Shown here one piece after another: positions 3,001-56,627 of a stretch of DNA of 64,000 bases. Within the stretch, counting starts at the first letter, position 1, and each line of letters begins with the position of its first letter. Source of the stretch: an uncultured Bdellovibrionales bacterium. GTDB taxonomy: Bacteria; Patescibacteriota; Minisyncoccia; Moranbacterales; UBA1568. Made by a program: the position numbers and the translations under genes. The DNA lies in contig CAZQLN010000004.1 of assembly GCA_964594215.1 (NCBI GenBank), positions 862-64,861 of the forward strand, in the 5' to 3' direction. The notes under the pieces were generated by a model. It was given only the letters and a program-made list of their open reading frames with translations, was not told the DNA's origin and made no database searches.

Positions 3001-5200
3001 CAATGAGGTCATTGAGAGAGCTTGCTCCCGTACCACCATTTGCTACTGGGAGAACACCAGTGACTTCACTAGAAAGATCTACCTGAGTTCCGAGGGTTGA
3101 CGCAATAGTGATACTGCCGCCGCCATTGGTCACCGTGATACCACTACCCTGAGTCAGAGTAGCCAGTGAGTAACCGCTCCCGTTACCGATCAAAAGTGAT
3201 CCATTAGCAGCAGAGCTACCATCTACACCAGTACCTCCACGAGATGGATTGAGCTGTGCTTCTCCTTGTAACGAAGAAGCTCCTGTAAAATACGCTACTT
3301 GGCCAGCAGATCCAGAAGCGGTCGCGCCACCCACACCAGATACAGAAGCACAACCCCATTCATTGGTGGTATTGTTCCAAGAAAGTACATCATCCTGGGC
3401 ACAGCCCTGAAGCAGAGTCAATTCGTTAGTACCACTTCCCTGAAACTCTAAACCGGAGAATGATGCAACTGCGCCGGCTCCATCAGCAGAATCAAGAAGG
3501 TCGATAGCGATAGTAGCTGCCCCTCCTTCACTCGCTGAAGATCCGCTAATACCATTACCACTGTTAATAGTTGCTACATAGTTACCAGTCGTATCAGTAC
3601 TCAATGCAACTGAATCTGAAGAAATAGTAATTACTCCGCTACTTGTAATTGTCGCGTCACCCGAGAGAGTGGCAAACGTCGGTGCACCAGCAGTAACTCC
3701 TAAGAGGAGTTGACCATTGGTACCGGCTGAGGTGACTTGAACGGCACCAGTACCATTACCATAGAGGACTCCATTAGAAGTGAGGGTGGTAGCTCCGGTG
3801 CCTCCGTTAGCGACTGGAAGAGTGCCTGTTACTTCGGTGGTGAGGTCAACCGTAGTACCAAGAGTGCTCGCTACGGTGATACTGCCTGATCCATTGGTGA
3901 TAGTGATACCTGAGCCTTGAGTAAGAGTGGCTAGTGAGTAACCACTACCGTTACCAATCAAGAGAGAACCATTAGCGGCTGAACTACCGTCTACACCAGT
4001 ACCTCCACGAGATGGATTGAGCTGATTCTCGCCAGCTAGTGAGGAGATTCCATTCCAGTAAGCGACCTGACCACTCGTACCTGTACCTGTGAGCCCTGCT
4101 GAAAAAGAAGTACACTCCCAAACATTTGTCGCATCATTCCAACTCACTCCCTGCCCATTAGAACAACCCTGAAGCAAAGTCAATTCATTATTGCCAGCTC
4201 CACCAAACTCAAGACCCGAATTTGATGAGGTTGCCCCTGCTCCATCGGCTGAGTCTAGAAGATCAATAGCAATTGTCGGAATACTTCCTTCGCCAGTCAA
4301 TCCCCCACTAATACCATTACCATTGGTAATACTCGCTACATAATCACCGGTAGTATCAGTGCCAAGATCGATACTACCAGAAGCTCCAACACTGATGTCA
4401 GAAAAAGTTGATCCATCGTTAGAGAGTTCCCATGCTTGAGTCGTACCGTTGTAGCGAAGAGCTGGCGCATTTGTAGCGCTTGATACTGTGAGATCGAAAT
4501 TATTACCACTCAGTGCCGTACCAGATCCAATATTGAAAATCTGCTCAGTCGTTCCAGTGTCTGTGTTTTGCGCATGAATATCATCAAGAATTTTATCATT
4601 ATCCTTGAGATAACCTTTGATGGCACTTGCTGGTAATGCTGGAATAAAACTAGCGTCCAGTTTTCCACCCTTATCAAGAACCGGAATGTCACCTTCATTG
4701 GTTCCAACGGTTCTTCCTTGGAGGAACTGCGTATTGAGAGCACGAGGTACAGAACCCAACTTCTTACGCGGTGTCATTTCGGAGTCACCTGCAACACGAA
4801 TACCGATATAGTAATCTCCCGAATCAAAGTTAATGGCATTAGAAAATGCATTGATACCTCCAAGAGAAGCTCGGAAAATACCGTTTTTGACTTCTACAGT
4901 TTGAGTTTCTTCCCAAAGTTTAGGATCAGAATTTGATGGATAGGCATCGGCGGTAGTACGATTTGCTGCATACAAAGCGAAGCGAACCTCATAAGTTCCA
5001 TTGGTAACAATCTGGTTATCTGAGTTAAAAAGCGATGCCGAGATAGAAATGAGGCGAATTGAGTTCGAATTTGATTGGTTTGACTGCGCAAAAACAGACT
5101 TTTGGTTAAAGCCCCACCCGATTATCACCACCAAGCTTAAAGCTATGAAGAGTGATGTGTATGCTGTTTTTCGGTTTTTATTTTTTACATAAAATAGCAT
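1..5200 (-). CDS. Giant secreted/cell-surface repeat protein, N-terminal 1,733 codons. The 3' end lies beyond position 1. Start ATG at 5200-5198 with a signal peptide (MLFYVKNKNRKTAYTSLFIALSLVVIIGWGFNQKSVFAQS). The body is 200-250 aa repeats with recurring motifs TEVTG(T/V)LPV(A/T/S)NGGTGA(T/S)(T/S)L, LLIGNGSGYSLATLTQGSGITITNG and TTGNYVA(T/S)ITxGNGISG.
   Basis: I translated the minus strand by hand in the frame whose codon first bases are congruent to 1 mod 3. The frame agrees at both ends (5200 and 58) and I met no stops in the stretches checked. The ORF track omits it because no stop falls inside the window. Nucleotide repeats of variable period (about 600-765 nt) are plainly visible. Confidence 0.6.
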   Translation of the reverse strand, partial: MLFYVKNKNRKTAYTSLFIALSLVVIIGWGFNQKSVFAQSNQSNSNSIRLISISASLFNSDNQIVTNGTYEVRFALYAANRTTADAYPSNSDPKLWEETQTVEVKNGIFRASLGGINAFSNAINFDSGDYYIGIRVAGDSEMTPRKKLGSVPRALNTQFLQGRTVGTNEGDIPVLDKGGKLDASFIPALPASAIKGYLKDNDKILDDIHAQNTDTGTTEQIFNIGSGTALSGNNFDLTVSSATNAPALRYNGTTQAWELSNDGSTFSDISVGASGSIDLGTDTTGDYVASITNGNGISGGLTGEGSIPTIAIDLLDSADGAGATSSNSGLEFGGAGNNELTLLQGCSNGQGVSWNDATNVWECTSFSAGLTGTGTSGQVAYWNGISSLAGENQLNPSRGGTGVDGSSAANGSLLIGNGSGYSLATLTQGSGITITNGSGSITVASTLGTTVDLTTEVTGTLPVANGGTGATTLTSNGVLYGNGTGAVQVTSAGTNGQLLLGVTAGAPTFATLSGDATITSSGVITISSDSVALSTDTTGNYVATINSGNGISGSSASEGGAATIAIDLLDSADGAGAVASFSGLEFQGSGTNELTLLQGCAQDDVLSWNNTTNEWGCASVSGVGGATASGSAGQVAYFTGASSLQGEAQLNPSRGGTGVDGSSAANGSLLIGNGSGYSLATLTQGSGITVTNGGGSITIASTLGTQVDLSSEVTGVLPVANGGTGASSLNDLIALGTNTTGNYIASITNGNGISGGVATEGGAPTLAVNILNSADGSGATNSNSGLEFQGASNNQLTLLQGCTNNDVLSWNDTTDVWSCSSVSGAGGITGTGSANQVAYFTSSSVVASEAQLAPLRGGTGVNGSAAANGTLLIGNGSGYSLTTLTQGSGITITNGSGSITVASTLGTTVDLTTEVTGVLPVANGGTGASSLNDLIALGTNTTGNYIASITNGNGISGGVATEGGTPTLALGDLTANWNQNGAFDIVLNNASSELSLLESAGATFYATLDAADLSGNRTLTLPNATGTLATLDGGQTFTSAVWNGTAVGAQYGGTGVDGSSAANGTLLIGNGSGYTLATLTQGGGISITNGAGTITVAASLGASVDLTTEVTGTLPVTNGGTGAASLTTNGILYGNGTSAIQVTAAGTNGQLLLGNTGGAPIFTTLSGDAVVSNTGVLTISGDSVDLTTDTVGNYVATITAGSGISGTASSEGATPTLAIDLLDTQDGTGITSSNSGLEFQGGGSNELTLLQGCVQDDVLSWNNTTNEWSCASVSGVGGATASGSAGQVAYFTGTSSLQGENQLNPSRGGTGVNGGSAPNGTLLIGNGTGYSLATITDGAGITVTEGAGTLTITATLGTDIDLASEVTGTLPVTSGGTGTTTLTANRILLGNGTGAVQVTNAGTNGQLLLGVTAGAPAFATMSGDAAITNAGVVTISADAVALSTDTTGNYVATITAGNGLSGSAASEGATPTLALGDLTSDWTQTGAFDIILNNAASELLLLESAGDTFYATLDAGDLSSNRTLTLPNVSGVIATINGGQTFTSAVWNGTVITPQYGGTGVDASLTNNGELLIGNGAGFSLATLTQGSGITITNGSGTISVSATLGTDINLATEVTGTLPVSSGGTGATTLTSNGVLYGNSAGAIQVTSAGTNGQLFLGNTGTAPAFATMSGDAAITNAGVVTISSNAVALTTDTTGNYVATITAGNGISGSSSSEGGTPTIAVDLLDSADGA

Positions 5201-5329
5201 GGAAATGGAATCATTATTCCTCTACAAGTATACCACGATTTTTGCTTTGCCAATAGTCTTTTTGTGTATAACTTGCAAAGAAAATCCCGCCTATTTTTGG
5301 GTCGAGATTTTCGTCAAATTTTCACCAAA

Positions 5330-17475: not shown

Positions 17476-20424
17476 CTACGAGACAACAATACTAATCAGT
17501 TTATTGGGTACCACAATAACTTTCCTGACTGTTTGGCTACCAATAGTTTCTTGCACTTTTTCTCTTGCAAGAGCAAGTTTTTCCACTTCTTCATTTGAAA
17601 GATCAAGTGCACCCTGGAATTGATCACGAATTTTACCATTAATCTGTACCATCAGTGTCACCTCTGCTACCACTACCTTGCTCGGATCAAAAACAGGCCA
17701 AGTCATCTCAAAAAGAGTTCCTTCTCCATCATTTTTTTGCCAAAGCTCTTCAGTAATATGCGGAGCATAGGGAGCTAAGATTCGTAGAAAAAGTTTCAGC
17801 TGTTCCCGAGTTAAGCCATTTTTTTCGATTATATTCACTGCTCCCATAAGCGCCGCTACTCCAGTATTCATCTTAAGAAGACTAATACTTTCCTCTACCT
17901 TGGCTATGGTTTGATGTAGGATTCTTTCTGTCTCATTTTTTTTATCATCAGAAAGTCCCTCATCTACCTTAAAGTGAAGTTTCCATACTCGATCAAGAAA
18001 ACGTCTCACTCCCACAATACTCTCTGGATTCCATGGGTAAGCCCCCACTTCATTATACGGACCAATGAAAGCCAGGTAGACACGAATGGTGTCCGCACCT
18101 AATTCCGCAACCAGTTCATCTGGATCAATCACATTTCCTTTAGATTTGCTCATCTTATTGCCGTCTGGCCCAAGAATAAGACTGCGGTTCATACGCCTGG
18201 TATAGGGCTCCACCTCATTAACGAGCCCTAAATCATAAAGTGCCTTATGAAAAAAACGTGAGTACAGTAAGTGCATAGTGGTATGTTCTGCTCCACCACT
18301 ATACAAATCTACCGGCATCCAGGCAGCTAGTTTGTTTTTATCAGCAAATACTTCTCTATTTGATGGATCACAATAACGCAAGAAATACCAACTACTATCC
18401 ACAAAAGTATCTAGGGTGTCTGTCTCACGACGAGCCGATTTACCACATTTTGGACATACTGTGTTTACAAAATCCTTGTTCTTAGAAAGCGGGCTCTCGC
18501 CGTTGTCATTAGGAAGATAGTCCCTTACGGCCGGTAGTTCTATCGGTAAGTCTTCGTCTGCTACCGGTTGCCAACCACACTTTTCACAGTGAATAAGCGG
18601 GATCGGACAGCCCCAATAACGCTGACGACTCACACCCCAGTCACGAAGACGGTAAGTCTTTGTCATCCTACCATGTACTTTTTCGATAATCTTTCCTTTG
18701 GCGTCATTGCCTGACAGTCCATCAAATTCACCAGACTGTACCAAAATACCGTCTGCACTTACAAGAGCACTCTCCTCTTGTCGCTCAAATAATTCTATGG
18801 CCCATTTAGCCTCTGCTACAGTAAAATAATTCTTGACCGCACTCTTCTCAACCCATACTAGTTCATGTTGAGCACTATCCTCTTCACTGATAGCTATCTG
18901 TTCATCATCAATAAGTTCAAAAAAGGCAAAGCTCCACAAAGCATGGCGGTTAATTTTCTTACCCCGATGATAGAATTTGGTATGTTTCTGGATATTGGGT
19001 GTACCAATAAATTTCACGTTCTTATAGCCCGTTTCTTCGAGGAGCTCCCTCCGCGCTGATTGCTCGATACTCTCACCTTCATCTATACCTCCAGTCACTA
19101 CCCCACGCATATCAAAATTTTTCCAAGATATTGCTAAGTAAGAATCCCGCTTTGGATCATAGAGTGCGATAGCTACATTATTTCTAGCCTCTGTCTTTTC
19201 TTCGGGTCGATAAGCATCATCACGGTTACCTTCCGTCACCACACACTCTTCAATCACCTTCTTAATCGGCAGACTAAACTTCTTAGCAAAAGCGAAGTCG
19301 CGCTCATCATGACCCGGTACCGCCATGATAGCTCCAGTACCATAGCCAGCTAATACATAATCAGCCACGTATAGAGGGATTTCTTCTCCCGTTGCCGGGT
19401 TAATAGCTACTACTCCGCCAAGCAGTACTCCCGTCTTTTCTTTAGCGGTATTAGTACGCTCTATCTCAGTTTTCTTCTTAGCGGCCTCTACGTAAGCTCT
19501 CACTTCCTCTTTATTAGAAAGAACATCATGATCATCCTGCAAAGCCAGAGTTACCCAAAGATGTTCAGGCGCCAAAACCATATAGGTTACCCCATAGAGA
19601 GTGTCTGGTCGCGTAGTAAAAACCGTTAACTGTGCTCGTTCACCATCTGGTCCACGGTTATCATTAGCCTCTACATTATGGGTAAAGCGAAGAAGGAAAT
19701 CTATCTCCGCCCCATCACTTCGGCCTATCCAATTTTTCTGAGCAGTCTTGATTTCTTCAGGCCAATCAAGCCCCTTCAGATCATCTATTAACCTATCAGC
19801 ATAGGCCGTAATTCGTAGTTGCCATTGCTTCATAGTTTTCTTCTCGATCTGAGCCCCACAACGCTCACAAGTGCCATTGATAACCTGTTCATTAGCCAAA
19901 ACTGTTTTGTCAGTCGGACACCAATTGGCAAGGGTTTCTCGCTCCTCGACTAATCCTGCTCTAAAAAGCTGAATAAACAACCACTGAGTCCATCGGTAGT
20001 ATTGGGGATCACAGGTTGCTATGGCACGAGACCAATCAAATATAGCTCCCATAGACTGAAGCTGGGTTTTCATATAGTCCATGTTTTGGTAGGTCCACAC
20101 TCGTGGATCTAAACCTCGCTTGATAGCGGCATTTTCAGCAGGAAGACCAAAGGCATCGAAACCAATGGGATAGAGGACATTCTTACCACGCATTCGCTCA
20201 AAGCGAGCTCGTATGTCGGGCACTGCAAAAGCGTACCAGTGACCAACGTGTAAGTTGCCTGATGGATAGGCAAATTCTACCAACTGATAGAAATTCTCTT
20301 TTCCTTCTACAGTATCTAAAACGACATGCAGGTTGCGCTCAGCCCACAAAGCCTGCCATTTTGGTTCAATAATTTCTGGTTGGTAGAGGTTTTCCATAAA
20401 CAGAGTACCTCTACTATATGCCAA
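17476..20424 (-). CDS. leuS: Leucyl-tRNA synthetase with an inserted NUDIX-like domain. The probable start is MENLYQ, nine codons in.
   Basis: HVGH, editing-domain motifs, YRLRDWGVSRQRYWG, KMSKS. NUDIX box GGIDEGESIEQSARRELLEETGY at about aa 444-466. Confidence 0.9.
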   Translation of the reverse strand: MAYSRGTLFMENLYQPEIIEPKWQALWAERNLHVVLDTVEGKENFYQLVEFAYPSGNLHVGHWYAFAVPDIRARFERMRGKNVLYPIGFDAFGLPAENAAIKRGLDPRVWTYQNMDYMKTQLQSMGAIFDWSRAIATCDPQYYRWTQWLFIQLFRAGLVEERETLANWCPTDKTVLANEQVINGTCERCGAQIEKKTMKQWQLRITAYADRLIDDLKGLDWPEEIKTAQKNWIGRSDGAEIDFLLRFTHNVEANDNRGPDGERAQLTVFTTRPDTLYGVTYMVLAPEHLWVTLALQDDHDVLSNKEEVRAYVEAAKKKTEIERTNTAKEKTGVLLGGVVAINPATGEEIPLYVADYVLAGYGTGAIMAVPGHDERDFAFAKKFSLPIKKVIEECVVTEGNRDDAYRPEEKTEARNNVAIALYDPKRDSYLAISWKNFDMRGVVTGGIDEGESIEQSARRELLEETGYKNVKFIGTPNIQKHTKFYHRGKKINRHALWSFAFFELIDDEQIAISEEDSAQHELVWVEKSAVKNYFTVAEAKWAIELFERQEESALVSADGILVQSGEFDGLSGNDAKGKIIEKVHGRMTKTYRLRDWGVSRQRYWGCPIPLIHCEKCGWQPVADEDLPIELPAVRDYLPNDNGESPLSKNKDFVNTVCPKCGKSARRETDTLDTFVDSSWYFLRYCDPSNREVFADKNKLAAWMPVDLYSGGAEHTTMHLLYSRFFHKALYDLGLVNEVEPYTRRMNRSLILGPDGNKMSKSKGNVIDPDELVAELGADTIRVYLAFIGPYNEVGAYPWNPESIVGVRRFLDRVWKLHFKVDEGLSDDKKNETERILHQTIAKVEESISLLKMNTGVAALMGAVNIIEKNGLTREQLKLFLRILAPYAPHITEELWQKNDGEGTLFEMTWPVFDPSKVVVAEVTLMVQINGKIRDQFQGALDLSNEEVEKLALAREKVQETIGSQTVRKVIVVPNKLISIVVS

Positions 20425-37192: not shown

Positions 37193-39175
37193 TTAGGGTG
37201 TTGCTTTTACGAAACCACTCTGCTCAGTTACACTCTTATCTTGCTCTAGATAGTTTGTAACCTTTGCGCGCTCCGTAATGACTTCTTTTTTAGTGAAACT
37301 TTCCTTAGCTTCGAATGTAGCTGTTTTGACTAACTCCACATCTTTACCTACCTGACTCTGATTAGGCGTAATAGCTACCTGAAATTGAAACTCCTTCTCT
37401 TTGCCTGAGGATAAAATACCTACCTCCCAAACAAGTTCATTGGTGCGCGCCTTCCATTCTACGGTTTCTCCATTAGGGTAGGACTTTTCTTTATACACGA
37501 CTCCGCTCGGAAGGACAAATGTTATGCGGGCTTGAGAAAGGTCGTTTGAAGAACTTGCTACCTTGGTACGAATAGTATAGGTAGTCTCACTCCCTACTAC
37601 TGGCGGTAATGGTCCGGTATTAGCTATATGGTCACCGCTGAAAAACGGCGACACCTGAAGCGCCACCAGGGCACCTACTTTGACCTGAAGGAGGTTGCTT
37701 GCAATAGTTTTATTACCAGTCAAGGTACTCTTGACATCAGGGCTATCGATAGTAGCTACTGACTTAATAGCAATGTTTTTAGGATTAGCATTAGCCGGAA
37801 ATTCTTTCACCACTGGTACGGTAAATGAAATCTTTCCTGACTGTCCAGGTTCGAGACGGGCCAAAGCTGGAATATCCGCAGCTTTCCAAGTAATTTTTTT
37901 CGTGTTTTGGTCATAAAAACCCTGACTCAGCTGAAGATTGGCAATATCTAGATAGGCCGTATCAAGCGCGAGAGTCACTATTACATCGCGCATACCGAGT
38001 GCTGATTCGTTCTTATACTCAATCTCATAATTCAACATGTCGCCTGGATTAGCAACGAGCTCATTATTGCCGTTTACCAACTGAGAGATGGTAAGTGGTG
38101 TGGCAATCATTTGCGTTCGCTTCTCTACCATGTTGTAGGTAAAGAGTGAGTTGTCACCCTGAAGAATACCAATAGTAGCCGAAAATGTTTTGGCCGTATC
38201 GCGAGCGCCTCCAAGACTACCATGAATCACTATCTTGCCATTCTGATTCGGTTTCAACTCAGGGAGGAGCCATGTATTATTACTCTCACTTGGCACTATA
38301 TCAGATGACAAGTACTGAAAACCTTCTGGATATTTGGCAACCACACGAAGGTTACGAAAGGTTTCTGGACTCCTATTCTCATACGTCACAACATAGTCGA
38401 GCTCTTGACCAGGAGCCACCTCACCAGGGGCGCTGACTTCAAAGAGGAGGGGTGAAGTGGCCAGAACCACCTGAAAGTTCGCTTTGGTATCAAACTGACT
38501 GCTCGTGCTTTTTGGTGTATAGCGAAGTGTGGCTTCGAAGTTTGCCTTCTCACCCTTGCCTCCATAAAACTTACCACTAATAGTAAATTTCTTGTTTGCA
38601 CCTCTCGCCAATCCGCCCACTGGTATTTCTACTCGCTTACCAGCCATTTTCATTTCTGGAGTCATTTCAATCTGGAAGGTATCGGGCAGAGCTATAGTCA
38701 GCGTAGTTTTCTCTATCTCATTCCAACTATTATTGGCATATGTCAGGTCAAAAGAGACTCGCTCAGCACTCGCTACACTCGCTGGTCCACTGATAAAAAT
38801 ACTAACGGCACTCTGACGCTTGAGATACGTGTATCCCGCAAAACTCGCTCCCCCCAAAACAAGTAAGGCAACTAGAGAACCTATAACAATATAGAGCTTT
38901 TTCAGCCTGGCTTTCTTAACATCAGGGCTGACTAGATAGATTTCTTGTTTAGGAGCTATCTGCCACTCTTCTTTTTTTTGAAAGGCTTGCTTTTCTTGGT
39001 CAATTTCTTCTTGAGTATGCTCTTCGTGCACAGCTAAACGTGCCTTATCTAGGTGAGTATCACGACTATGGAGTTGTTCATTTAAATCTTCGAGACTCAT
39101 ATGAGGTATATTTGTTTTGACTACCTCTATACTAGCAAAATTGAGAGATGAAAGAAACGCTAGTGAGCTATCCAA
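37193..39175 (-). CDS. Membrane-anchored surface protein with DUF11/CARDB-like conserved repeat domains
   Basis: One TM (LYIVIGSLVALLVLGG) followed by repeated beta-sandwich-like segments (PGQELDYVVTYENRS..., PGDMLNYEIEYKNES...). Confidence 0.4.
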   Translation of the reverse strand: MDSSLAFLSSLNFASIEVVKTNIPHMSLEDLNEQLHSRDTHLDKARLAVHEEHTQEEIDQEKQAFQKKEEWQIAPKQEIYLVSPDVKKARLKKLYIVIGSLVALLVLGGASFAGYTYLKRQSAVSIFISGPASVASAERVSFDLTYANNSWNEIEKTTLTIALPDTFQIEMTPEMKMAGKRVEIPVGGLARGANKKFTISGKFYGGKGEKANFEATLRYTPKSTSSQFDTKANFQVVLATSPLLFEVSAPGEVAPGQELDYVVTYENRSPETFRNLRVVAKYPEGFQYLSSDIVPSESNNTWLLPELKPNQNGKIVIHGSLGGARDTAKTFSATIGILQGDNSLFTYNMVEKRTQMIATPLTISQLVNGNNELVANPGDMLNYEIEYKNESALGMRDVIVTLALDTAYLDIANLQLSQGFYDQNTKKITWKAADIPALARLEPGQSGKISFTVPVVKEFPANANPKNIAIKSVATIDSPDVKSTLTGNKTIASNLLQVKVGALVALQVSPFFSGDHIANTGPLPPVVGSETTYTIRTKVASSSNDLSQARITFVLPSGVVYKEKSYPNGETVEWKARTNELVWEVGILSSGKEKEFQFQVAITPNQSQVGKDVELVKTATFEAKESFTKKEVITERAKVTNYLEQDKSVTEQSGFVKATP

Positions 39176-47367: not shown

Positions 47368-47826
47368 GTGTCTAAAAATATGACTGTCATTGCCAGAAAC
47401 AAACGAGCTAGTTTTGATTATGCCTTAGGAGAGCACTTCGAGGCCGGTTTAGTATTGACTGGATCTGAAGTCAAGGCCGTCAAAACGGGTCATGCCAGCC
47501 TTAAAGGCAGCTTTGTCACCGTTAAGGGTAGTGAACTCATGCTTACTAATGCCCTAATCCCGCGCTATAAGCACGCTCACAAGGATACAGTCCACGAGGA
47601 TACACGCCCAAGAAAGCTTCTCCTTCGCAAGCGTCAGATCCGCTCTCTGATCGGAAAATTTCGCACAGAAGGCTTGACATTGGTGCCGATTCGTTTGTAT
47701 ACTAAGAAACAACTTGTCAAGGTTGAATTTGCTGTTGGTAAAGGAAAAAAGACCTACGACAAGCGTCAAACCATCGCTAAACGAGATGCCGAACGCAGTA
47801 TGCGTAAAGCCATGAGACATGACTAG
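47368..47826 (+). CDS. smpB: SsrA-binding protein SmpB. The likely true start is ATG at 47380.
   Basis: ASFDY...GLVLTGSEVKA motif. Confidence 0.85.
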   Translation: MSKNMTVIARNKRASFDYALGEHFEAGLVLTGSEVKAVKTGHASLKGSFVTVKGSELMLTNALIPRYKHAHKDTVHEDTRPRKLLLRKRQIRSLIGKFRTEGLTLVPIRLYTKKQLVKVEFAVGKGKKTYDKRQTIAKRDAERSMRKAMRHD

Positions 47827-47896: not shown

Positions 47897-48299
47897 GGGG
47901 TTGTTTAGACTCGACAGCGTGTACTTTCAAAATATGCAAGCCGACCCCGAGAGCATGGTCGTAAATCTTACTCTCACAATGATAATTGCAAACATCATTT
48001 CAAAGACGAAGAGTGCACTAGCTAACGCTTTTGCTCCCTCTTACGCTCTTGCTTTCGCTTAATTGTGATCGCCATCAGAACTCCTATTCTCGATAAAGAA
48101 CTTCTGGTGTCATATTCATCGAGACGACCGTAAGGATTTCGCTTTTTTTACCCTATTGGTTGTATGCAAAAGAAAGAACAGACAAAAAGTTTTGTTTCTT
48201 TTCTCATTTTTGTTCTGTCACTCCAAAAGAAACTACGCTTGTAGAATATTTTGAAAAAACATGAACTGGACATGGGTGCAATTCCCATCAACTCCACCA
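47897..48299 (+). ncRNA. ssrA: tmRNA (SsrA). Candidate tag ORF GCU AAC GCU ... UAA encodes ANAFAPSYALAFA.
   Basis: 5' GGGGUUGUUUAGACUCGACAGCG matches GGGGCUGAUUCUGGAUUCGACGGG. 3' GGACAUGGGUGCAAUUCCCAUCAACUCCACCA matches the tRNA-like end. The acceptor pairs GGGGUUG/CAACUCC with a G3-U wobble. It sits immediately downstream of smpB. Confidence 0.65.
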
Positions 48300-48863
48300 T
48301 TAACAATACTTTTCGTGAGAAGACGACGTCACAACCGACCAAAACCAAAAGAACAGGTGAAGCTCCGTTTGCGCTTGAATGAGCAGATAGAAGCCCCTGA
48401 GATTATGGTTATCGACCTCCATGGCGAAAACCGCGGAGTGATGTCTGTCGCTGACGCTATCCTGATTGCCCAGGAACAAGAAGCTGATCTCGTCGAGGTC
48501 TCTCCCCTAGCTAAGCCTCCTGTCTGTAAGATTACCGATTACGGTAAGCTCCAGTACAAACAGGCCAAGCAAGATCAACAGGCCAAGGCTAAGCAAAAGA
48601 AGGTAGATACCAAAGGTATTCGTATCGGCTTCCGTACTGATAAGCATGATCTTGCTTTCAAAAAAGGTCAGGCTGAAAAGTTTCTTACTAAGGGACACAA
48701 GGTGCGTATCGAGATAATACTACGTGGCCGTGAAAAAGCCATGAATGACAAAGCTCGAGAAAACCTCACTCTCTTCGCCAAAAGCATTACCATCCCTTTC
48801 AAAACTGAAGAAGAAGTCAAAAGAGGTCCAAAAGGATTCACGACACTAATCGCTCCAGAATAA
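48261..48863 (+). CDS. infC: Translation initiation factor IF-3. The true start is probably a non-ATG codon near 48330, after the tmRNA 3' end.
   Basis: KITDYGKLQYKQ and the IF3 C-terminal domain. infC-rpmI-rplT synteny. Confidence 0.8.
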   Translation: MNWTWVQFPSTPPLTILFVRRRRHNRPKPKEQVKLRLRLNEQIEAPEIMVIDLHGENRGVMSVADAILIAQEQEADLVEVSPLAKPPVCKITDYGKLQYKQAKQDQQAKAKQKKVDTKGIRIGFRTDKHDLAFKKGQAEKFLTKGHKVRIEIILRGREKAMNDKARENLTLFAKSITIPFKTEEEVKRGPKGFTTLIAPE

Positions 48864-50836: not shown

Positions 50837-51254
50837 GCATTGGTATTTCTAGTATAGCATCACAAAGGTCTAACACTTCCCGTGAAATCCCCTCCACTTC
50901 ATTACCTACTATTAAGGCTACCTTAGTGGCATCAGTAGTCTCTGTATAAGGAATACTTCTCGCGTCTTGTTCTAAGGCGTAACAAACAAAACCCGCTCCT
51001 TTTAACTCACCAAGCAATAGAAAGATATCTGCACGCTGTTCCCAGGAAACTGTTTTTTCAGCACCGAGAGCTGTTTTTTGAATCTGCTTATCTGCAGTAG
51101 TCAGAAGATATTTCTTAGTTGATGGAATGGGTGTGTATCCAGTCAGGTACACCTTCGTCACGCCCGCTCCATCAGCGGTACGCAAAAAGGCGCCCACATT
51201 GTGAGCGCTCCGTATATCATGAGCAATAAGTACTACCTCCCTATCGACCACCAT
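50739..51254 (-). CDS. SpoU/TrmH-family RNA 2'-O-methyltransferase. The start is taken at MVVDRE. The ORF-track extension to 51308 overlaps the upstream gene.
   Basis: SPOUT motifs (NVGAFLRTADGAG, LIVGNEVEGIS). Confidence 0.6.
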   Translation of the reverse strand: MVVDREVVLIAHDIRSAHNVGAFLRTADGAGVTKVYLTGYTPIPSTKKYLLTTADKQIQKTALGAEKTVSWEQRADIFLLLGELKGAGFVCYALEQDARSIPYTETTDATKVALIVGNEVEGISREVLDLCDAILEIPMHGTKNSLNVSVATGIALYELSKNKTHGRQKAN

Positions 51255-52245
51255 ACTGTTGAAATAATGCTTTACCGGTATCCCAAAGAGCAGGATAATT
51301 CTTTTCAATTTTTAACCAGTACCACCATTCTACTCCCCATAGGTAGATTTCATCAAAACCCACTCTTCTAGCGTAGGTGACATTCTCAACTAATTTTTTC
51401 TCATCCATGGTAATGAATTGTTCCTCAAGAGGTACGTTCTTCACCCAACCATTAGCCCATGGTTCAGCCTGAAGCTCTATCACGATGAAATGTTCTTGAT
51501 CGGTAAGAAGTCTCGTCCAAAGTTCTTTCATCTTGAAAAAATTTGGCCCAATCGGATACGTCACATAACCGAGGCGTTTCTGATAGATGTGTCGATAGAG
51601 TGTGGTGCCGAAAATATCACCCTCATGAGCCGCCTTGTACCACAAAGAAAGTTCTCCACTATCAGTGACAATGACCTTACGAGTTGGATCTAGATCTTTT
51701 ACCAAGGCTACTTCGCTGGTCAGAAATGATGGATCGAGTTTTGGACAAATACCAAACAATGCAAGAAATGGCTCATTTTCTACCTGCCATGTTGTGACTG
51801 TCGGATTATCTTTATAACGCTCTACAGTAGTTTTGATCATCTTGAGAAGCTTTGTTCTACGGAGATGCTCATCTTCCTTGGCCCAAGATGGAATATGACA
51901 CTCTGGCCAACGAGGAACGCGTTGACCTACAGTCACAATCACTTCCGCATCCTGCTTACCAGCTTCCTCTATTTGCCAATCAAGATCTGAAAAATTATAA
52001 ACCCCCTGCTCCTTCTCAATTAAGTCCCAATAAGCTGGCAGGCGGAGCTTTTTGACCTGAAGGTCATTGAGCATCGCTAAATAAGTTTCGCGCCAATTCA
52101 AACCCAGATCCTCAGCATACCGTGAAGAAAAAGTCATTCCTAAAACCACATCTTCCCGCGGTTTTGGCCCAGGGAGATTGAGATAGCCAAAAAAGAGAAG
52201 GGCTACGAAAAATAAAATTACCAGTATTTTTTTTGTTTTTTGCAT
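51241..52245 (-). CDS. Secreted glycoside hydrolase, clan GH-A (cellulase-like TIM barrel)
   Basis: Signal peptide/TM at the N-terminus. Catalytic acid/base motif WQVENEP. Confidence 0.45.
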   Translation of the reverse strand: MQKTKKILVILFFVALLFFGYLNLPGPKPREDVVLGMTFSSRYAEDLGLNWRETYLAMLNDLQVKKLRLPAYWDLIEKEQGVYNFSDLDWQIEEAGKQDAEVIVTVGQRVPRWPECHIPSWAKEDEHLRRTKLLKMIKTTVERYKDNPTVTTWQVENEPFLALFGICPKLDPSFLTSEVALVKDLDPTRKVIVTDSGELSLWYKAAHEGDIFGTTLYRHIYQKRLGYVTYPIGPNFFKMKELWTRLLTDQEHFIVIELQAEPWANGWVKNVPLEEQFITMDEKKLVENVTYARRVGFDEIYLWGVEWWYWLKIEKNYPALWDTGKALFQQYGGR

Positions 52246-52254
52246 CGTTTTGTT

Positions 52255-53193
52255 TTAGAGGATACTCACTCCGCTTAAAGCCATAAACCAGAAACCTAGT
52301 CCAATAAGCATAAGAGCAAAGGCTTTTTGAGCCCAATCCCAGACACTTAGGTGTTCTCCAAAAATATGTGGGAAACGCAGACTTAGTGGGATAGCTAAGA
52401 TAAGAAGAAACACATACTGAGTACCGTTTAGAGCCTGCACGAAAGAAACTGATCCCAGATGAGTAGCGTAAAGAATAAGAAAGCTAGCAATACCCGCACA
52501 AGACTTATTGATAACAAACAGAAGTAATGTGAACACATTCTGTTTACTCTTGACCTTATTAGGCTCGTGGTGAACCAGGATCTGATGACGATACATCGGA
52601 ATCAATAAAAGCGAGACGCCGGCTAACACCATACCCAGACGTGACCACACTAATCCGTTAATAAAATCAATCTCTGTGTATCCATACTTGAGAAGGAGGA
52701 GGGAAACCCCTAAGAGAAAACCTGCAATAATAGCTGTAAGCGGTAAACGATCACTTTTTTGAAGAGGGAGATCGTAAGAAATGAGAATCCCTCCAATTAC
52801 CAATAAGACTAAAGCGATAAACACTTGGGTACTAAAGATGATCTCACCAAACACACTTGGGAAAAGTCCTCCAGCGAGTAATACGGTGAGAGAAGTTACC
52901 AAGCCCACTAACGGTGCAATACGTGCCACATTTCCCGCTTTGACGGCGTAGTAAAAAGCTAACAAACCAACAATAAAAAAAACTCCAGAAAGAAGAAAAA
53001 GGACTAGGTAGTAAACCGGAATAATTTGAAGTCCAAAAGGAGCAAAAAAGAGTGAGAAGAGACTGAATAAGGAAACGTAGAAGGCATATACCGCTGGTTT
53101 CGGTATATGTTTCTCAGTTAAAATCACCTTATCTAGAAGTTGAGAAACTGCGTTACAAAAATAGCCTAAAATGGCAAAGGAGATCCATGTCAT
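52255..53193 (-). CDS. Multi-TM transporter, DMT/EamA-like
   Basis: About 10 predicted TM helices in two repeated halves. Confidence 0.4.
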   Translation of the reverse strand: MTWISFAILGYFCNAVSQLLDKVILTEKHIPKPAVYAFYVSLFSLFSLFFAPFGLQIIPVYYLVLFLLSGVFFIVGLLAFYYAVKAGNVARIAPLVGLVTSLTVLLAGGLFPSVFGEIIFSTQVFIALVLLVIGGILISYDLPLQKSDRLPLTAIIAGFLLGVSLLLLKYGYTEIDFINGLVWSRLGMVLAGVSLLLIPMYRHQILVHHEPNKVKSKQNVFTLLLFVINKSCAGIASFLILYATHLGSVSFVQALNGTQYVFLLILAIPLSLRFPHIFGEHLSVWDWAQKAFALMLIGLGFWFMALSGVSIL

Positions 53194-53260
53194 AATGATA
53201 CCTCTAGTATAGCCTTTTCAGAAGTAAAAAAACAGCCCATTTAGGGCTGTTAGTACTCCT

Positions 53261-54052
53261 CTAGCGGAGAGCTATCTGTCTATAGTACTGATCCACGTCA
53301 CTAATCCATTTAGCCACACTCTCTTTGGAATGACTGGCGCAACTATCGCCGCACTTCCACGCAGTTACCAGTCTTGAAGGCTCCGCACTCGCCCGCTTCT
53401 CTACCAAACGCTCAAGACGGTTACCCACAGTCTCCACAGCTTCTTCCCTACTCTCAAAACAGGCGTAGCCCATCGATTCGCCACGACCACCAGCACCTTT
53501 ATACCCCCAGTAGTTATAACAGTCTTCTCCTCCTTTACTTGGAGCATGTTCTCCCCAACTACTTTCTTTCTTGGCAATACCAACGAGCAGGCCAGCAATT
53601 GATTTATCAAAACGAGCAATACTTGGGGCCATATCCTCTAAAGGATATCCTGAAGAAATCTTCTCTATATTCCCTCTCATTTCTAACTCTGAAGCTGATT
53701 CGGTATCCGTACTAAGGATCTCTTCGGTTTTTTTACCACAAAGCCTTTCCTGTTCTTGAAGGGTTTTCTTGCTGGCAGCTTGAATATCTCTTAAGTCTCG
53801 CCTGAAATCACAGATGCTGTCTGATTCTGAAGCAACTGCACTTGATTCCTCTACTGCCACTGGCTTCTCGCTGACCAAAAGAGGGGCTTGATTGGGTAAT
53901 GCAGGAAAAGCACTAAAAAAAGTAAAAGACAGCGCCGTAAATGAAGAAAGCCATTTAGACCCAGATTGCTGTCTTTTGAGTTGTTTTGAAATAATATGCC
54001 CTCCCAGGCGTCGTAGTTGACGACAAAAACTTAAAAAGTTTTTTGAATACAT
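53261..54052 (-). CDS. Secreted Cys-rich protein, paralog A. The C-terminal domain resembles a GH73 glucosaminidase-like peptidoglycan hydrolase.
   Basis: GIAKKESSWG ... CYNYWGYKG ... CFESREEAVETV ... WKCGDSCASHS ... WISDVDQYY. Shares a conserved C-terminal domain of about 110 aa with 54349..55335. Confidence 0.35.
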   Translation of the reverse strand: MYSKNFLSFCRQLRRLGGHIISKQLKRQQSGSKWLSSFTALSFTFFSAFPALPNQAPLLVSEKPVAVEESSAVASESDSICDFRRDLRDIQAASKKTLQEQERLCGKKTEEILSTDTESASELEMRGNIEKISSGYPLEDMAPSIARFDKSIAGLLVGIAKKESSWGEHAPSKGGEDCYNYWGYKGAGGRGESMGYACFESREEAVETVGNRLERLVEKRASAEPSRLVTAWKCGDSCASHSKESVAKWISDVDQYYRQIALR

Positions 54053-54301
54053 AGATTGGCCACCCTGTTTTCCAGATCAGACTCCTCCCAGATTCTTTGG
54101 ATTTCTGTAAAACCGATACACCCCCTCTCTTTGTTACGCAACATTGAGACGAAAACATACCTCCAGACTGGCGTTAATGAACTGCGTTTTGGGTCGTATT
54201 TAGGGAAATACTCTTCCAGGACGCAAAGGAAACTATAGCAAAATAATCAAAAGAGGTCAATGGCTTAAATAAGCCAAAAATAGAAATTACACCTCTTTAT
54301 A

Positions 54302-54330
54302 AAGCAAAAAGAGGCTTTCGCCTCTTTAAT
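54302..54330 (-). terminator. Hairpin terminator (GAGGCGAAAGCCTC plus T-run in the minus orientation)
   Basis: Immediately 3' of the paralog B gene. Confidence 0.45.
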
Positions 54331-54348
54331 TTTTGGCTTATTTTAAGG

Positions 54349-55335
54349 CTATTCAGCAGGAGCTTCTTCCATGAACTCACTATAATACATATCCACATCA
54401 CTAATCCATTTCTTCACACTCTCTCGAGAGTGGCCTTCGCAGCTAAAACCACATTTCCAGACCACCAGTTTCTCTGGGGTATTAAGCTTCTCTGAATGGA
54501 TCAAAGTATCAAGACGCTTCGCCACAGTATCAACCGCATCCTGACGACTATTGAAACAAGTATGCCCTCCGGTTCCCATCATTCGTCGTACCCCACGGTA
54601 GCCCCAATAATTATAACAATCTTGTCCATCGAGGACTGGTACCCGCTTTCCCCAATTACTCTCTTTCTTGGCGATGCCAATAAGGAAGGCCGCTGTAATT
54701 TTATCCTTTTCGAGGATATATGGGAGCATTTCTTCTATTGGATATCCCTTAACCATTTTACGAATGTTATCTTCATACTCTGCCCCCTGAGCCTCAGAAA
54801 AGTACTCAAAAAAAACATCCTGACTCGGATCATACAGAGCATTAGCACTATTTGATTTTTGAACAGCATCAGCAAGTGGTTCCTTCTCGGTAGCAAATAC
54901 TCCTCCACCGAAGTACTGCGCCATCAAGGCCATAGACAGGATGCCAAAGACTACTCCTCCTGTAAGCGATGCATACACCATTCTCTTCGGTTCGAGCTCT
55001 GGTATGAAACGATTGATGAAACGGTTAATGATACGCTTCAGGCGACGTCCGTAGAGCTCTCCCTTACGCACAAACATCCAAAAACTTTCTACTACTGTTT
55101 TCTCTCTCAAACTGTTAAGAAGATTCTTGCGTTCTCGACGAAGACCGTCAAGATTTTTGGTCTCTTGTTGTTTGGTGTACAAAAAAGCCTTCCGACGTTG
55201 TTCTCGTTCAAGAACATACTGTGGAATTGCCCGAGTATCGATCCTTTTTTGTGTTTGAATATCGAGACTGACTTTTTTTGCTGGTGTAAGACTATAGGTC
55301 TCGTAATGAAATGACTCTGGTTTCATGGGGGTCAT
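54349..55335 (-). CDS. Membrane-anchored Cys-rich protein, paralog B, with the same C-terminal GH73-like domain
   Basis: GIAKKESNWG ... CYNYWGYRG ... CFNSRQDAVDTV ... WKCGFSCEGHS ... WISDVDMYY. One TM in the middle. Confidence 0.35.
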   Translation of the reverse strand: MTPMKPESFHYETYSLTPAKKVSLDIQTQKRIDTRAIPQYVLEREQRRKAFLYTKQQETKNLDGLRRERKNLLNSLREKTVVESFWMFVRKGELYGRRLKRIINRFINRFIPELEPKRMVYASLTGGVVFGILSMALMAQYFGGGVFATEKEPLADAVQKSNSANALYDPSQDVFFEYFSEAQGAEYEDNIRKMVKGYPIEEMLPYILEKDKITAAFLIGIAKKESNWGKRVPVLDGQDCYNYWGYRGVRRMMGTGGHTCFNSRQDAVDTVAKRLDTLIHSEKLNTPEKLVVWKCGFSCEGHSRESVKKWISDVDMYYSEFMEEAPAE

Positions 55336-55342
55336 TTTTGAT

Positions 55343-55771
55343 TTATTGGTTGGTTGTCCCTGCTGCTTCTTCTTCGGTTAAAGTAACACCCGCTTTTTCA
55401 GCAAAGAATTTTTTGACATCTGGTTCACCCACAATACATTTGTTTCCTTCGGTATAGATGAATGGTACACCCACTTTGCTTGCGTCTAAACCACAAGCTT
55501 CAGCTTTTTCTTTCATCTGACTGCTATTTGTACGACTATGCCAAACTTCTTTTTTTGTAAAAGTAAACTTGGAAGCAACATCATTAGCCTCAAGAAACTC
55601 ATTAATACGTTTACAATGTGGACACTCCGCTCCAAAAAAATAAATCGTACTGGCATCTGGTACACTAGCCGCTTGGTTTTCAGACTTCCCCTCAATTACC
55701 GCCCAGGCAACGATGCCAGCAATGACAATAAAGGTACCTCCAAGGATAATCCAGATTTTTTTTGATTCCAT
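55343..55771 (-). CDS. Membrane-anchored thioredoxin/glutaredoxin-fold protein with a CPHC active site
   Basis: N-terminal TM, then YFFGAECPHCKRINEFL. Confidence 0.55.
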   Translation of the reverse strand: MESKKIWIILGGTFIVIAGIVAWAVIEGKSENQAASVPDASTIYFFGAECPHCKRINEFLEANDVASKFTFTKKEVWHSRTNSSQMKEKAEACGLDASKVGVPFIYTEGNKCIVGEPDVKKFFAEKAGVTLTEEEAAGTTNQ

Positions 55772-55790
55772 AGTGTATGTTAAGACATGA

Positions 55791-56627
55791 TCAATTGTTC
55801 TTTATCATAGCATATTTTGAGCTCCAAAACCAGATGAAAGTAGTGCCAAAAAACATTATCAAAGAGAGTATCTGTCCCCTCGTAAAAATATTCCACAAAA
55901 TAGCTACTCCTGGATCTGGCTCACGCCAGTATTCCAAAATAAAACGTACTGCACTATAAGAAATCAGGTATACTACCGTAAGAGTCCCTAATTTTAATTC
56001 ACGTTTTTGCCAAAACCCAAGCCAAAATAGCAAAAAAATACCTTCAAAAAAAAGACTGTAGAGAGTCACTGGATGTCGTAAAACTTGATCGCTTGGGAAA
56101 TAAATTCCCCATGAGCTCTCTGTGATACGTCCTGGAAGTTCTTGATTGAGAAAATTGCCCAATCTACCAAATAGAGAAACTACGGGAGCTACTAAAACCA
56201 AGCGATCAGTTAAAGAAAAAAGAGCTATTTTGTGCCGATATGACCAAAAGATGGCCGTCACAGCTACTCCAATGAGTCCTCCGTGAAAACTCATCCCTCG
56301 CAAAGGAAGAAGTGTCTCTGTTGAAAAATCATACGGTAAAAAGAGCATCGCTGGGTGCTGCCAAAAAAAGAGGGGTTCGTAAAACAGTGCAAACCCTAAT
56401 CTTCCACCTACAAAGGCTCCGAACAAAAGCCACCAAAAAAGATCCAGCCAATCTGACGCGCTCAATAACCGTACTCTCTCATTTTTTTTCTCAAGATACA
56501 GAATTCCTAATAGCGCTCCAATCCAGGCCAGTAGAAAACACACCGCGTACCAGTATATTTGAAAAGATCCAACCGTGAGAGCGATTGGATCAAAACACTG
56601 CATGATAAAGTGCCAGCTACACAACAT
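55791..56627 (-). CDS. lgt: Prolipoprotein diacylglyceryl transferase
   Basis: Lgt signature region (GGRLGFALFYEP, FHGGLIG). Multi-TM. Confidence 0.75.
   Translation of the reverse strand: MLCSWHFIMQCFDPIALTVGSFQIYWYAVCFLLAWIGALLGILYLEKKNERVRLLSASDWLDLFWWLLFGAFVGGRLGFALFYEPLFFWQHPAMLFLPYDFSTETLLPLRGMSFHGGLIGVAVTAIFWSYRHKIALFSLTDRLVLVAPVVSLFGRLGNFLNQELPGRITESSWGIYFPSDQVLRHPVTLYSLFFEGIFLLFWLGFWQKRELKLGTLTVVYLISYSAVRFILEYWREPDPGVAILWNIFTRGQILSLIMFFGTTFIWFWSSKYAMIKNN

Follow-up and report, generated by a model that had tools for sequence, protein, structure and literature searches.

The closest described counterparts of the proteins considered here are enzymes of glycoside hydrolase family 73 (GH73). 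In Salmonella FlgJ the general acid is E184, and a mobile beta-hairpin contributes another catalytic Glu (E223 of StFlgJ, E156 of Auto, with an equivalent residue in TM0633), without which these enzymes are not active (PMC4752226). Some GH73 sequences have no hairpin acid and may use substrate-assisted catalysis (PMC4752226). Staphylococcus aureus SagB has a single N-terminal membrane anchor, with its catalytic domain outside the cell (bioRxiv 10.1101/2020.05.21.109470). Here we describe two adjacent genes, designated A and B, in a stretch of 64,000 nucleotides (nt; hereafter the window) from an uncultured bacterium of the Moranbacterales (assembly GCA_964594215.1, contig CAZQLN010000004.1, positions 862 to 64,861). 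The two proteins share a trimmed, four-cysteine domain of GH73-like type, and A and B are probably membrane-tethered, outward-facing enzymes that cleave the glycan strands of peptidoglycan.

The shared GH73-like domain of A and B

The two genes and their domains are located as follows (window positions; aa, amino acids).

53261 to 54052, minus strand: gene A, 263 aa, with a short basic tail, a weak signal-anchor, an acidic linker and a GH73-like domain
53264 to 53683, minus strand: GH73-like domain of A (aa 124-263), with predicted catalytic Glu163 (codon 53564-53566) and Cys178, Cys198, Cys234 and Cys238
54349 to 55335, minus strand: gene B, 328 aa from the first ATG, bitopic, with a basic cytoplasmic tail (aa 1-118), a transmembrane (TM) anchor, a linker and a C-terminal GH73-like domain
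54352 to 54780, minus strand: GH73-like domain of B (aa 186-328), with predicted catalytic Glu225 (codon 54661-54663) and Cys240, Cys260, Cys295 and Cys299

Gene callers put the start of B three codons downstream, which gives a protein of 325 aa. As proposed in the first-pass annotation, a model's reading of the DNA letters, A and B are tandem paralogs with unrelated N-terminal halves and a common C-terminal domain. BLASTP aligned their C-terminal parts only, with 52% identity over 134 aa (E=8e-50), a similarity far beyond chance, and found no significant similarity between the N-terminal halves. The motifs and the four conserved cysteines quoted in that annotation are present, but the shared domain is longer than the 110 or so residues given there, spanning about 135-143 aa. 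In the domain numbering used below, the cysteines are C55, C75, C110 and C114 and the predicted catalytic residue is E40, which corresponds to Glu225 in B and Glu163 in A.

The combined evidence supports the domain as a remote relative of GH73 with a lysozyme fold, and not as a canonical GH73 domain. An AlphaFold2 (AF2) model of B aa 186-328, based on a 34-sequence alignment, had a mean pLDDT of 90 and a pTM of 0.85 and consisted mainly of helices, the beta element being very small. When this model was compared with the PDB by Foldseek, ten of the top eleven matches were GH73 structures (FlgJ 3vwo/2zyc/5dn4, LytB 7pj3 and SagB 6fxp), and the eleventh was 4kt3, the type VI secretion system (T6SS) effector Tge2, which we take to be GH73-like as well. 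These eleven matches had probabilities of 0.75-1.0 and query TM-scores (TMq) of 0.37-0.60, and lytic transglycosylase structures ranked below all GH73 matches. The best matches in a library of viral structures (BFVD) were phage beta-N-acetylglucosaminidases (TMq about 0.6). The modelled domain thus has the lysozyme-like fold of GH73 with a much reduced beta-lobe, and the fold that the first-pass annotation expected is what structure prediction returned.

Standard sequence models barely detect this kinship. A Pfam scan of full-length A and B gave no family at E<=1, an NCBIfam scan gave a single FlgJ match (13.7 bits), and the B domain alone scored 13.3 bits against PF01832 (E=0.14). Among 149 diverse family members (representatives clustered at 50% identity), PF01832 was matched by 56, with a best E-value of 4.4e-5, and no other Pfam family recurred beyond 6 members; the glucosaminidase family named at first pass is therefore the sole recurrent one, but always below threshold. 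With a reference profile of 37 FlgJ domains, all carrying PF01832, hhalign aligned the family profile over 66 columns (probability 78.9%, E=1.6e-5), pairing I-A-K-K-E-S-N-W-G with A-Q-A-A-L-E-S-G-W-G and D-C-Y-N-Y-W-G-Y-R-G with P-S-Y-N-L-F-G-V-K-A. E40 falls on the Glu of FlgJ A-L-E-S-G-W-G, the residue mutated in 3K3T E185A (SpFlgJ) and equivalent to the general acid E184 of Salmonella FlgJ. In NCBI and JGI annotation, a few members already carry the names "glucosaminidase domain-containing" or "FlgJ-related".

The alignment also locates the main departure from GH73, an 18-column deletion exactly at the mobile beta-hairpin of FlgJ, and the family does not possess the second catalytic carboxylate of the characterised FlgJ/Auto cluster. 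E40 is the sole invariant acid of the whole domain; D26, D54, E16, D81 and D128 are acidic in 81-90% of the 149 representatives. S41, G44, N57, G60, W108-K-C-G111, C114 and W125 are invariant along with E40. The four cysteines, E40 and S41 are all present in each of 141 domain copies from 80 species-level loci; these are the best 80 of 560 loci and stand for B-type orthologs with 65% identity or more rather than for the family as a whole, and the synteny counts given below refer to the same set. The alignment stops before the G-Y-A-T-D-P region of GH73, where the family has W-K-C-G-x-S-C ... K-W-I-x-D-V-x-x-Y. Loss of the hairpin acid is unusual, but not unprecedented, within GH73.

Several results weigh against a GH73 assignment. 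No member among the 149 reached the PF01832 gathering score of 30.2 bits in the Pfam scan, and sequence searches of the PDB (phmmer with B, hmmsearch with the family profile) gave no relative. The Foldseek E-values are modest (0.02-0.7), and the hhalign probability is 79%, not above 95%, with the alignment limited to the N-terminal two thirds of the domain. In addition, the loop from G60 to C75 is 12-15 aa long in 149 of 149 representatives and contains Asp or Glu in only 65, at no conserved position. Given the loss of the second carboxylate and the lack of any invariant acid besides E40, the chemistry could be that of a hydrolase or a lytic transglycosylase, and of a glucosaminidase or a muramidase. 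The GH73-like guess made at first pass is thus upheld as remote homology with a common fold, sub-threshold PF01832 matches and a profile alignment to FlgJ, but it fails as strict membership, since no gathering score is attained and the hairpin carrying the second carboxylate is deleted.

Compared with FlgJ of Salmonella (5DN4/5DN5) and Sphingomonas (2ZYC/3VWO), the domain has in common the lysozyme-like alpha-lobe, a Glu on the central helix within (A/K)-E-S/T-x-W-G, the segment Y-N-x-(F/W)-G-(I/V/Y)-(K/R), and a return strand with F-x-x-(Y/S) that leads into a long helix. Unlike FlgJ, it has a beta-hairpin about 18 residues shorter and without an equivalent of Glu223, a C-terminal third that does not align, four conserved cysteines, and an N-terminal TM anchor in place of the FlgJ rod-capping domain.

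Membrane anchoring and spread of the family

The hydrophobic segments of the two proteins differ in strength.

54898 to 54981, minus strand: TM anchor of B (aa 119-146, MVYASLTGGVVFGILSMALMAQYFGGGV), mean Kyte-Doolittle hydropathy 1.78, with 28 Lys+Arg against 14 Asp+Glu on its N-terminal side
53897 to 53953, minus strand: weak signal-anchor of A (aa 34-52), mean Kyte-Doolittle hydropathy 1.25

The internal TM segment described for B at first pass is clear. The signal peptide described for A, on the other hand, is not a classic cleavable one: the protein begins with a basic tail of 33 aa (8 Lys+Arg, no Asp+Glu), which is followed by the weakly hydrophobic segment. Both proteins look signal-anchored, and together with the product of the neighbouring CPHC gene (see below) they are predicted to be anchored with the N-terminus inside and the C-terminus outside the cell. 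A related genome preserves the reading frame of the 118-aa tail of B, and tblastn detects the tail in 60 of 80 related loci, from which we conclude that it is truly coding. In 211 of 253 evaluable family members (83%) the domain is preceded by a clear TM segment, with a median cytoplasmic tail of 33 aa and a median linker of 49 aa; membrane tethering, as predicted from sequence, is a family trait.

The two copies are also distinct lineages. Within the 80 loci, the first copy is B-type without exception and the second A-type in 58 of 59 cases, and the A/B tandem is found in 55 of 70 informative loci. Identity is 66-75% within a type and 50% between types, even inside one locus, and the types form separate clades in which nearest neighbours sort by type. 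By these comparisons, the A/B duplication is ancient and both copies are under purifying selection.

A word-indexed search returned 1,364 related proteins, almost all unnamed or assigned to Candidatus Moranbacteria. An exhaustive HMMER scan of 1.84 billion cluster representatives gave only 327 clusters (50% identity) at E<=1e-3, including 239 at E<=1e-30, and 560 relatives were found in GTDB species-representative genomes. As far as these searches indicate, the family is compact and essentially Moranbacteria-specific. IMG/VR viral contigs contained no relative, and a phage-lysin origin, which was also considered, is accordingly unsupported. Many species-representative metagenome-assembled genome records (TPA assemblies) titled "uncultured Bdellovibrionales bacterium" (L007, L008, L010, L013, L014 and about 35 more) carry the same locus, in the order AI-2E transporter, lgt, glutaredoxin-like gene, B and A. 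These loci are up to 95% identical to the window and of Moranbacteria type, and the titles are probably placeholders or mislabels.

The CPHC protein, the cysteines and the neighbouring genes

Upstream of B and around A, the following features were recognised.

55791 to 56627, minus strand: lgt, encoding prolipoprotein diacylglyceryl transferase, 278 aa (Pfam LGT, E=1e-51)
55343 to 55771, minus strand: gene for a membrane-anchored CPHC protein of glutaredoxin fold, 142 aa, assigned by weak Pfam/NCBIfam matches, alignment, AF2 and fold search
54308 to 54327, minus strand: terminator-like hairpin, 22 nt past the B stop codon (consensus scan only)
54232 to 54260, minus strand: promoter-like site in the 296-nt B-A spacer, TTGACC, 17-nt spacer and TATAGT, with TG (consensus scan only, 10 of 12 matches)
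53231 to 53251, minus strand: terminator-like hairpin past the A stop codon (consensus scan only)

The window's list of open reading frames (ORFs) contains lgt, the CPHC gene, B and A as four consecutive minus-strand ORFs at the coordinates given in the first-pass annotation, which had correctly placed lgt and a membrane-anchored CPHC gene directly upstream of B on the same strand. The intergenic gaps are 19 nt between lgt and the CPHC gene, 7 nt between the CPHC gene and B, and 296 nt between B and A. This tight spacing suggests that lgt, the CPHC gene and B are co-transcribed, and the terminator-like hairpin after B together with the promoter-like site before A suggests that A is transcribed separately, from its own promoter. 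A caution to the latter suggestion is that the promoter and terminator calls are consensus matches of a kind that occurs at background frequency.

The lipobox [LVI][ASTVI][GAS]C is not found in A, B or the CPHC protein, and a lipobox-like match occurs in only 1 of 267 family members. Without a lipobox, A and B are ruled out as lipoprotein substrates of Lgt, so their position beside lgt does not reflect a pairing of enzyme and substrate. The adjacency is nevertheless highly conserved, as are those of other genes.

lgt: directly upstream of B in all 73 informative loci
AI-2E transporter gene: upstream in 72 of 73 loci
CPHC gene: upstream in 52 of 73 loci
EamA-like and glycoside hydrolase (GH)-like genes: downstream in 45 of 61 loci

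Across loci with this conserved block, Lgt identity drops to 34-47%, which indicates that the block is old. Locus L088 is a further lgt-B-A arrangement without the CPHC gene, and the distant family members P0113, P0120 and P0258 sit in unrelated contexts. At P0113, in a distant Moranbacteria genome, a 112-aa membrane protein of PF04020 (Phage_holin_4_2; L003, 5583-5921, plus strand) is encoded 80 nt upstream and a P-type ATPase directly downstream; the PF04020 protein may be a partner in export or control that resembles a holin, or its presence may be a coincidence. In the window itself, the genes downstream of A encode an EamA-like protein with 10 TM segments (51241-52245, minus strand) and a 334-aa protein (52255-53193, minus strand) that has an N-terminal TM segment and weak matches to TIM-barrel glycoside hydrolases (GH42 E=9e-8, also GH10 and GH2). 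The latter could be a further enzyme of envelope glycan processing.

The CPHC protein has a TM segment at aa 8-26, and alignment shows an invariant CPHC at aa 50-53 (nt 55613-55624) and an invariant GVPF, which we interpret as the likely cis-Pro loop. Its AF2 model (pLDDT 81, core above 90) has the glutaredoxin-type order beta-alpha-beta-alpha-beta-beta-alpha, and its best PDB matches are glutaredoxin and thioredoxin domains with probability 1.0, so the protein as modelled belongs to the thioredoxin/glutaredoxin superfamily by fold. At the sequence level, Glutaredoxin, DsbA and YruB models were matched only far below Pfam/NCBIfam thresholds; the DsbA NCBIfam scores were 13-18 bits against cutoffs of 279-290 and covered the signal/CPHC region only. 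Like the thiol oxidases DsbA/MdbA and the glutaredoxin-like NrdH/YruB, the protein combines the thioredoxin-superfamily fold with an N-terminal CPHC, the DsbA motif, and in this comparison it has a membrane anchor and a predicted extracytoplasmic location. CPHC is the motif of strongly oxidising proteins of the DsbA/MdbA type. The protein is nonetheless no member of the DsbA family, for its soluble part is of minimal glutaredoxin size (about 100 aa) and has no helical insertion. A second invariant cysteine pair, C93 at the end of helix 2 and C112 in strand 4, is likewise unlike DsbA and suggests a structural disulfide of its own.

The cysteines of the A/B domain are among its most conserved residues. 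C110 and C114 are invariant, and C55 and C75 are retained in 147 and 148 of the 149 representatives, respectively; cysteine conservation, on which the first-pass annotation had staked its proposal, is thus evident among diverse members as well as in the 141 locus copies. In a single variant, P0258, C55 and C75 are lost together and C110 and C114 are kept, which hints at the pairing C55-C75 and C110-C114. Given the predicted extracytoplasmic topology, the conservation and this co-loss, two disulfides are the most likely arrangement, with C55-C75 lying at the base of the trimmed lobe and C110 paired with C114 across three residues.

Whether the CPHC protein forms these disulfides is a separate question. 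The proposal of a disulfide-dependent module is favoured by a membrane-anchored protein of glutaredoxin/thioredoxin fold encoded 7 nt from B, but 21 of the 73 orthologous loci have lgt and no CPHC gene, with no room for one between lgt and B, and all four cysteines are kept there. The flanking AI-2E, EamA-like and GH-like genes are equally syntenic; since functionally unrelated neighbours are conserved to the same degree, adjacency alone does not demonstrate a redox module. An aimed search found no DsbB, VKOR, DsbD or CcdA encoded anywhere in the 64-kb window. The CPHC protein may be regarded as a reasonable candidate oxidase for the A/B cysteines, one that is dispensable in cis. The bearing on an episymbiotic way of life suggested at first pass is speculative.

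Other features of the window were recorded in passing. A leucyl-tRNA synthetase ORF (17476-20424, minus strand, 982 aa) is unusual in that a NUDIX hydrolase domain (aa 414-530, Pfam E=6.8e-13) has been fused or inserted after the editing domain, ahead of the second half of the catalytic core. At the left edge, positions 1-5220 (minus strand) form a single open frame that extends over at least 1,740 codons and continues past the edge; no complete ORF of at least 120 aa and no Rfam match was found in this interval. Its N-terminal hydrophobic segment and Gly/Ser/Thr-rich sequence indicate that it probably encodes a giant surface protein. A 660-aa protein with DUF11/CLIPPER-type repeats is encoded at 37193-39175 (minus strand), and a related giant SpaA/CLIPPER protein occurs near a family member in L004; both are probably adhesin-like cell-surface proteins of a type common in genomes of the candidate phyla radiation (CPR). 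The smpB gene (47368-47826, plus strand) is directly followed by the tmRNA gene (47897-48299, 113 bits), whose 3' end is overlapped by the first-ATG ORF of initiation factor IF-3 (48261-48863). Because of this overlap, the true start of infC is probably further downstream or non-canonical.

Proposed function and competing explanations

Homology, fold, conservation of the predicted catalytic Glu, the lost hairpin, predicted topology, paralogy and synteny are direct results of the analysis; for the substrate, bond specificity, disulfides, redox coupling, operon and physiological role of A and B alike, we infer the following from their sequences and models. The invariant Glu of the K-K-E-S-x-W-G helix (Glu225 in B, Glu163 in A) would act as general acid, and Y-N-Y-W-G would line the groove, a part played in FlgJ by Y-N-L-F-G. 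FlgJ, Auto and TM0633 have their second carboxylate on the mobile beta-hairpin, which is here cut to a loop of 12-15 residues; with the hairpin acid gone, catalysis would proceed by substrate assistance or with a non-equivalent residue. Two disulfides would rigidify the reduced domain outside the cell. Since both proteins are anchored in the membrane of the cell that makes them, action on that cell's own nascent or septal wall is most plausible, and it would consist of strand release or trimming and of daughter-cell separation.

The best functional analogy for A and B is SagB (6FXP), which has the GH73-type fold (TMq 0.56-0.57) and, with SpdC, releases nascent peptidoglycan. SagB differs from A and B in its full beta-lobe, in having no cysteine quartet and in showing no detectable sequence similarity to them, and no SpdC/CAAX-protease-like partner was identified beside A or B. 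The catalytic domain of Streptococcus pneumoniae LytB (7PJ3/7PJ4) is also similar in fold (TMq 0.58-0.60), and by analogy with LytB and with Enterococcus faecalis AtlA a role in septum cleavage and cell separation may be presumed. LytB and AtlA are, however, secreted and targeted by choline-binding or LysM modules, whereas no wall-binding repeats are present in A and B, which are tethered to the membrane instead.

Among other explanations, the missing hairpin acid raises the question of whether the domain is a lytic transglycosylase or muramidase and not a GH73 glucosaminidase, using a single Glu in E-S and leaving 1,6-anhydroMurNAc ends. E40 is indeed the sole invariant acid, the E-S dipeptide, a hallmark of family-1 lytic transglycosylases, is invariant, and lytic transglycosylases (Cj0843, SLT and LT_GEWL domains) do occur lower in the fold-search lists. 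All of the best fold and sequence matches are nevertheless to GH73 and not to SLT, and the aligned Y-N-x-(F/W)-G motif is specific to GH73. From the family-1 motif set of E-S, G-L-M-Q and A-Y-N-x-G only E-S is present; SLT (PF01464) gave no match at E<=1 for A or B and did not recur among the 149 members. Some bona fide GH73 enzymes also have no hairpin acid (PMC4752226), and on balance we regard this reading as rather unlikely. The same deletion, along with the absence of any match reaching a curated threshold, could be taken to mean that the domain is a catalytically dead module for peptidoglycan binding or regulation. Pseudoenzymes usually lose the catalytic residue, though, and here the Glu, with the motif around it, is retained in 149 of 149 representatives and 141 of 141 locus copies, which makes a dead module highly improbable. 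It is very unlikely, too, that A and B are offensive enzymes directed against a host or prey wall at episymbiotic contact, in the manner of the T6SS Tge effectors. Such use would accord with Tge2 (4kt3) among the fold matches and with restriction of the family to a CPR lineage, which is thought to be host-dependent, but 83% of members are tethered N-terminally to the producer's membrane, no secretion-system or immunity-like gene is adjacent in a context of housekeeping and envelope genes, and both paralogs persist in about 80 species, a pattern that core wall metabolism would produce.

The cysteines allow a different objection, namely that they form a structural Zn site or are redox-inert, with the CPHC protein an unrelated neighbour (for example, a reductant) and no redox module at all. 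A metal site with four cysteine ligands may be an alternative to disulfides, and the near-invariant H/Y73 and the frequent H117 lie beside two of the cysteines. The loci in which the cysteines persist without a CPHC gene, the equal synteny of the flanking genes and the want of a DsbB, VKOR or CcdA partner in the window point the same way. Conversely, the spacing C-x19-C-x34-C-x3-C is unlike that of common zinc knuckles, the pairwise loss in P0258 fits two independent disulfides better than a four-ligand site, and an extracytoplasmic domain is predicted next to a gene, only 7 nt from B, whose product has the oxidising DsbA/MdbA-type motif. We consider this explanation unlikely. At the other extreme, A and B could constitute a redox-gated autolysin system: a hairpin-less offshoot of GH73 with catalysis unlike that of FlgJ and Auto, activated outside the cell through disulfides by the co-transcribed CPHC oxidase, and coupled to the division machinery by the tail of B. 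This elaborate version is quite doubtful; if true, it would be a dedicated control of wall cleavage in the ultra-small Moranbacteria.

Very little has been established about how CPR/Patescibacteria turn over their cell walls and divide, and literature searches on GH73 in Patescibacteria or on the wall hydrolases of Moranbacteria gave nothing specific and no account of this family. The family is a Moranbacteria-specific, hairpin-less, four-cysteine, membrane-anchored GH73-like subfamily that includes an ancient tandem pair, a modest finding that should not surprise a specialist. It overturns nothing; the gain is an improved annotation and a testable enzyme. As a natural GH73 scaffold without the catalytic hairpin carboxylate, the domain bears on the unsettled mechanism of GH73. 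Standard domain models miss the family, about 560 copies of which, with an invariant predicted catalytic Glu, are present in species-representative genomes, and the pair thus provides concrete candidate autolysins of Moranbacteria.

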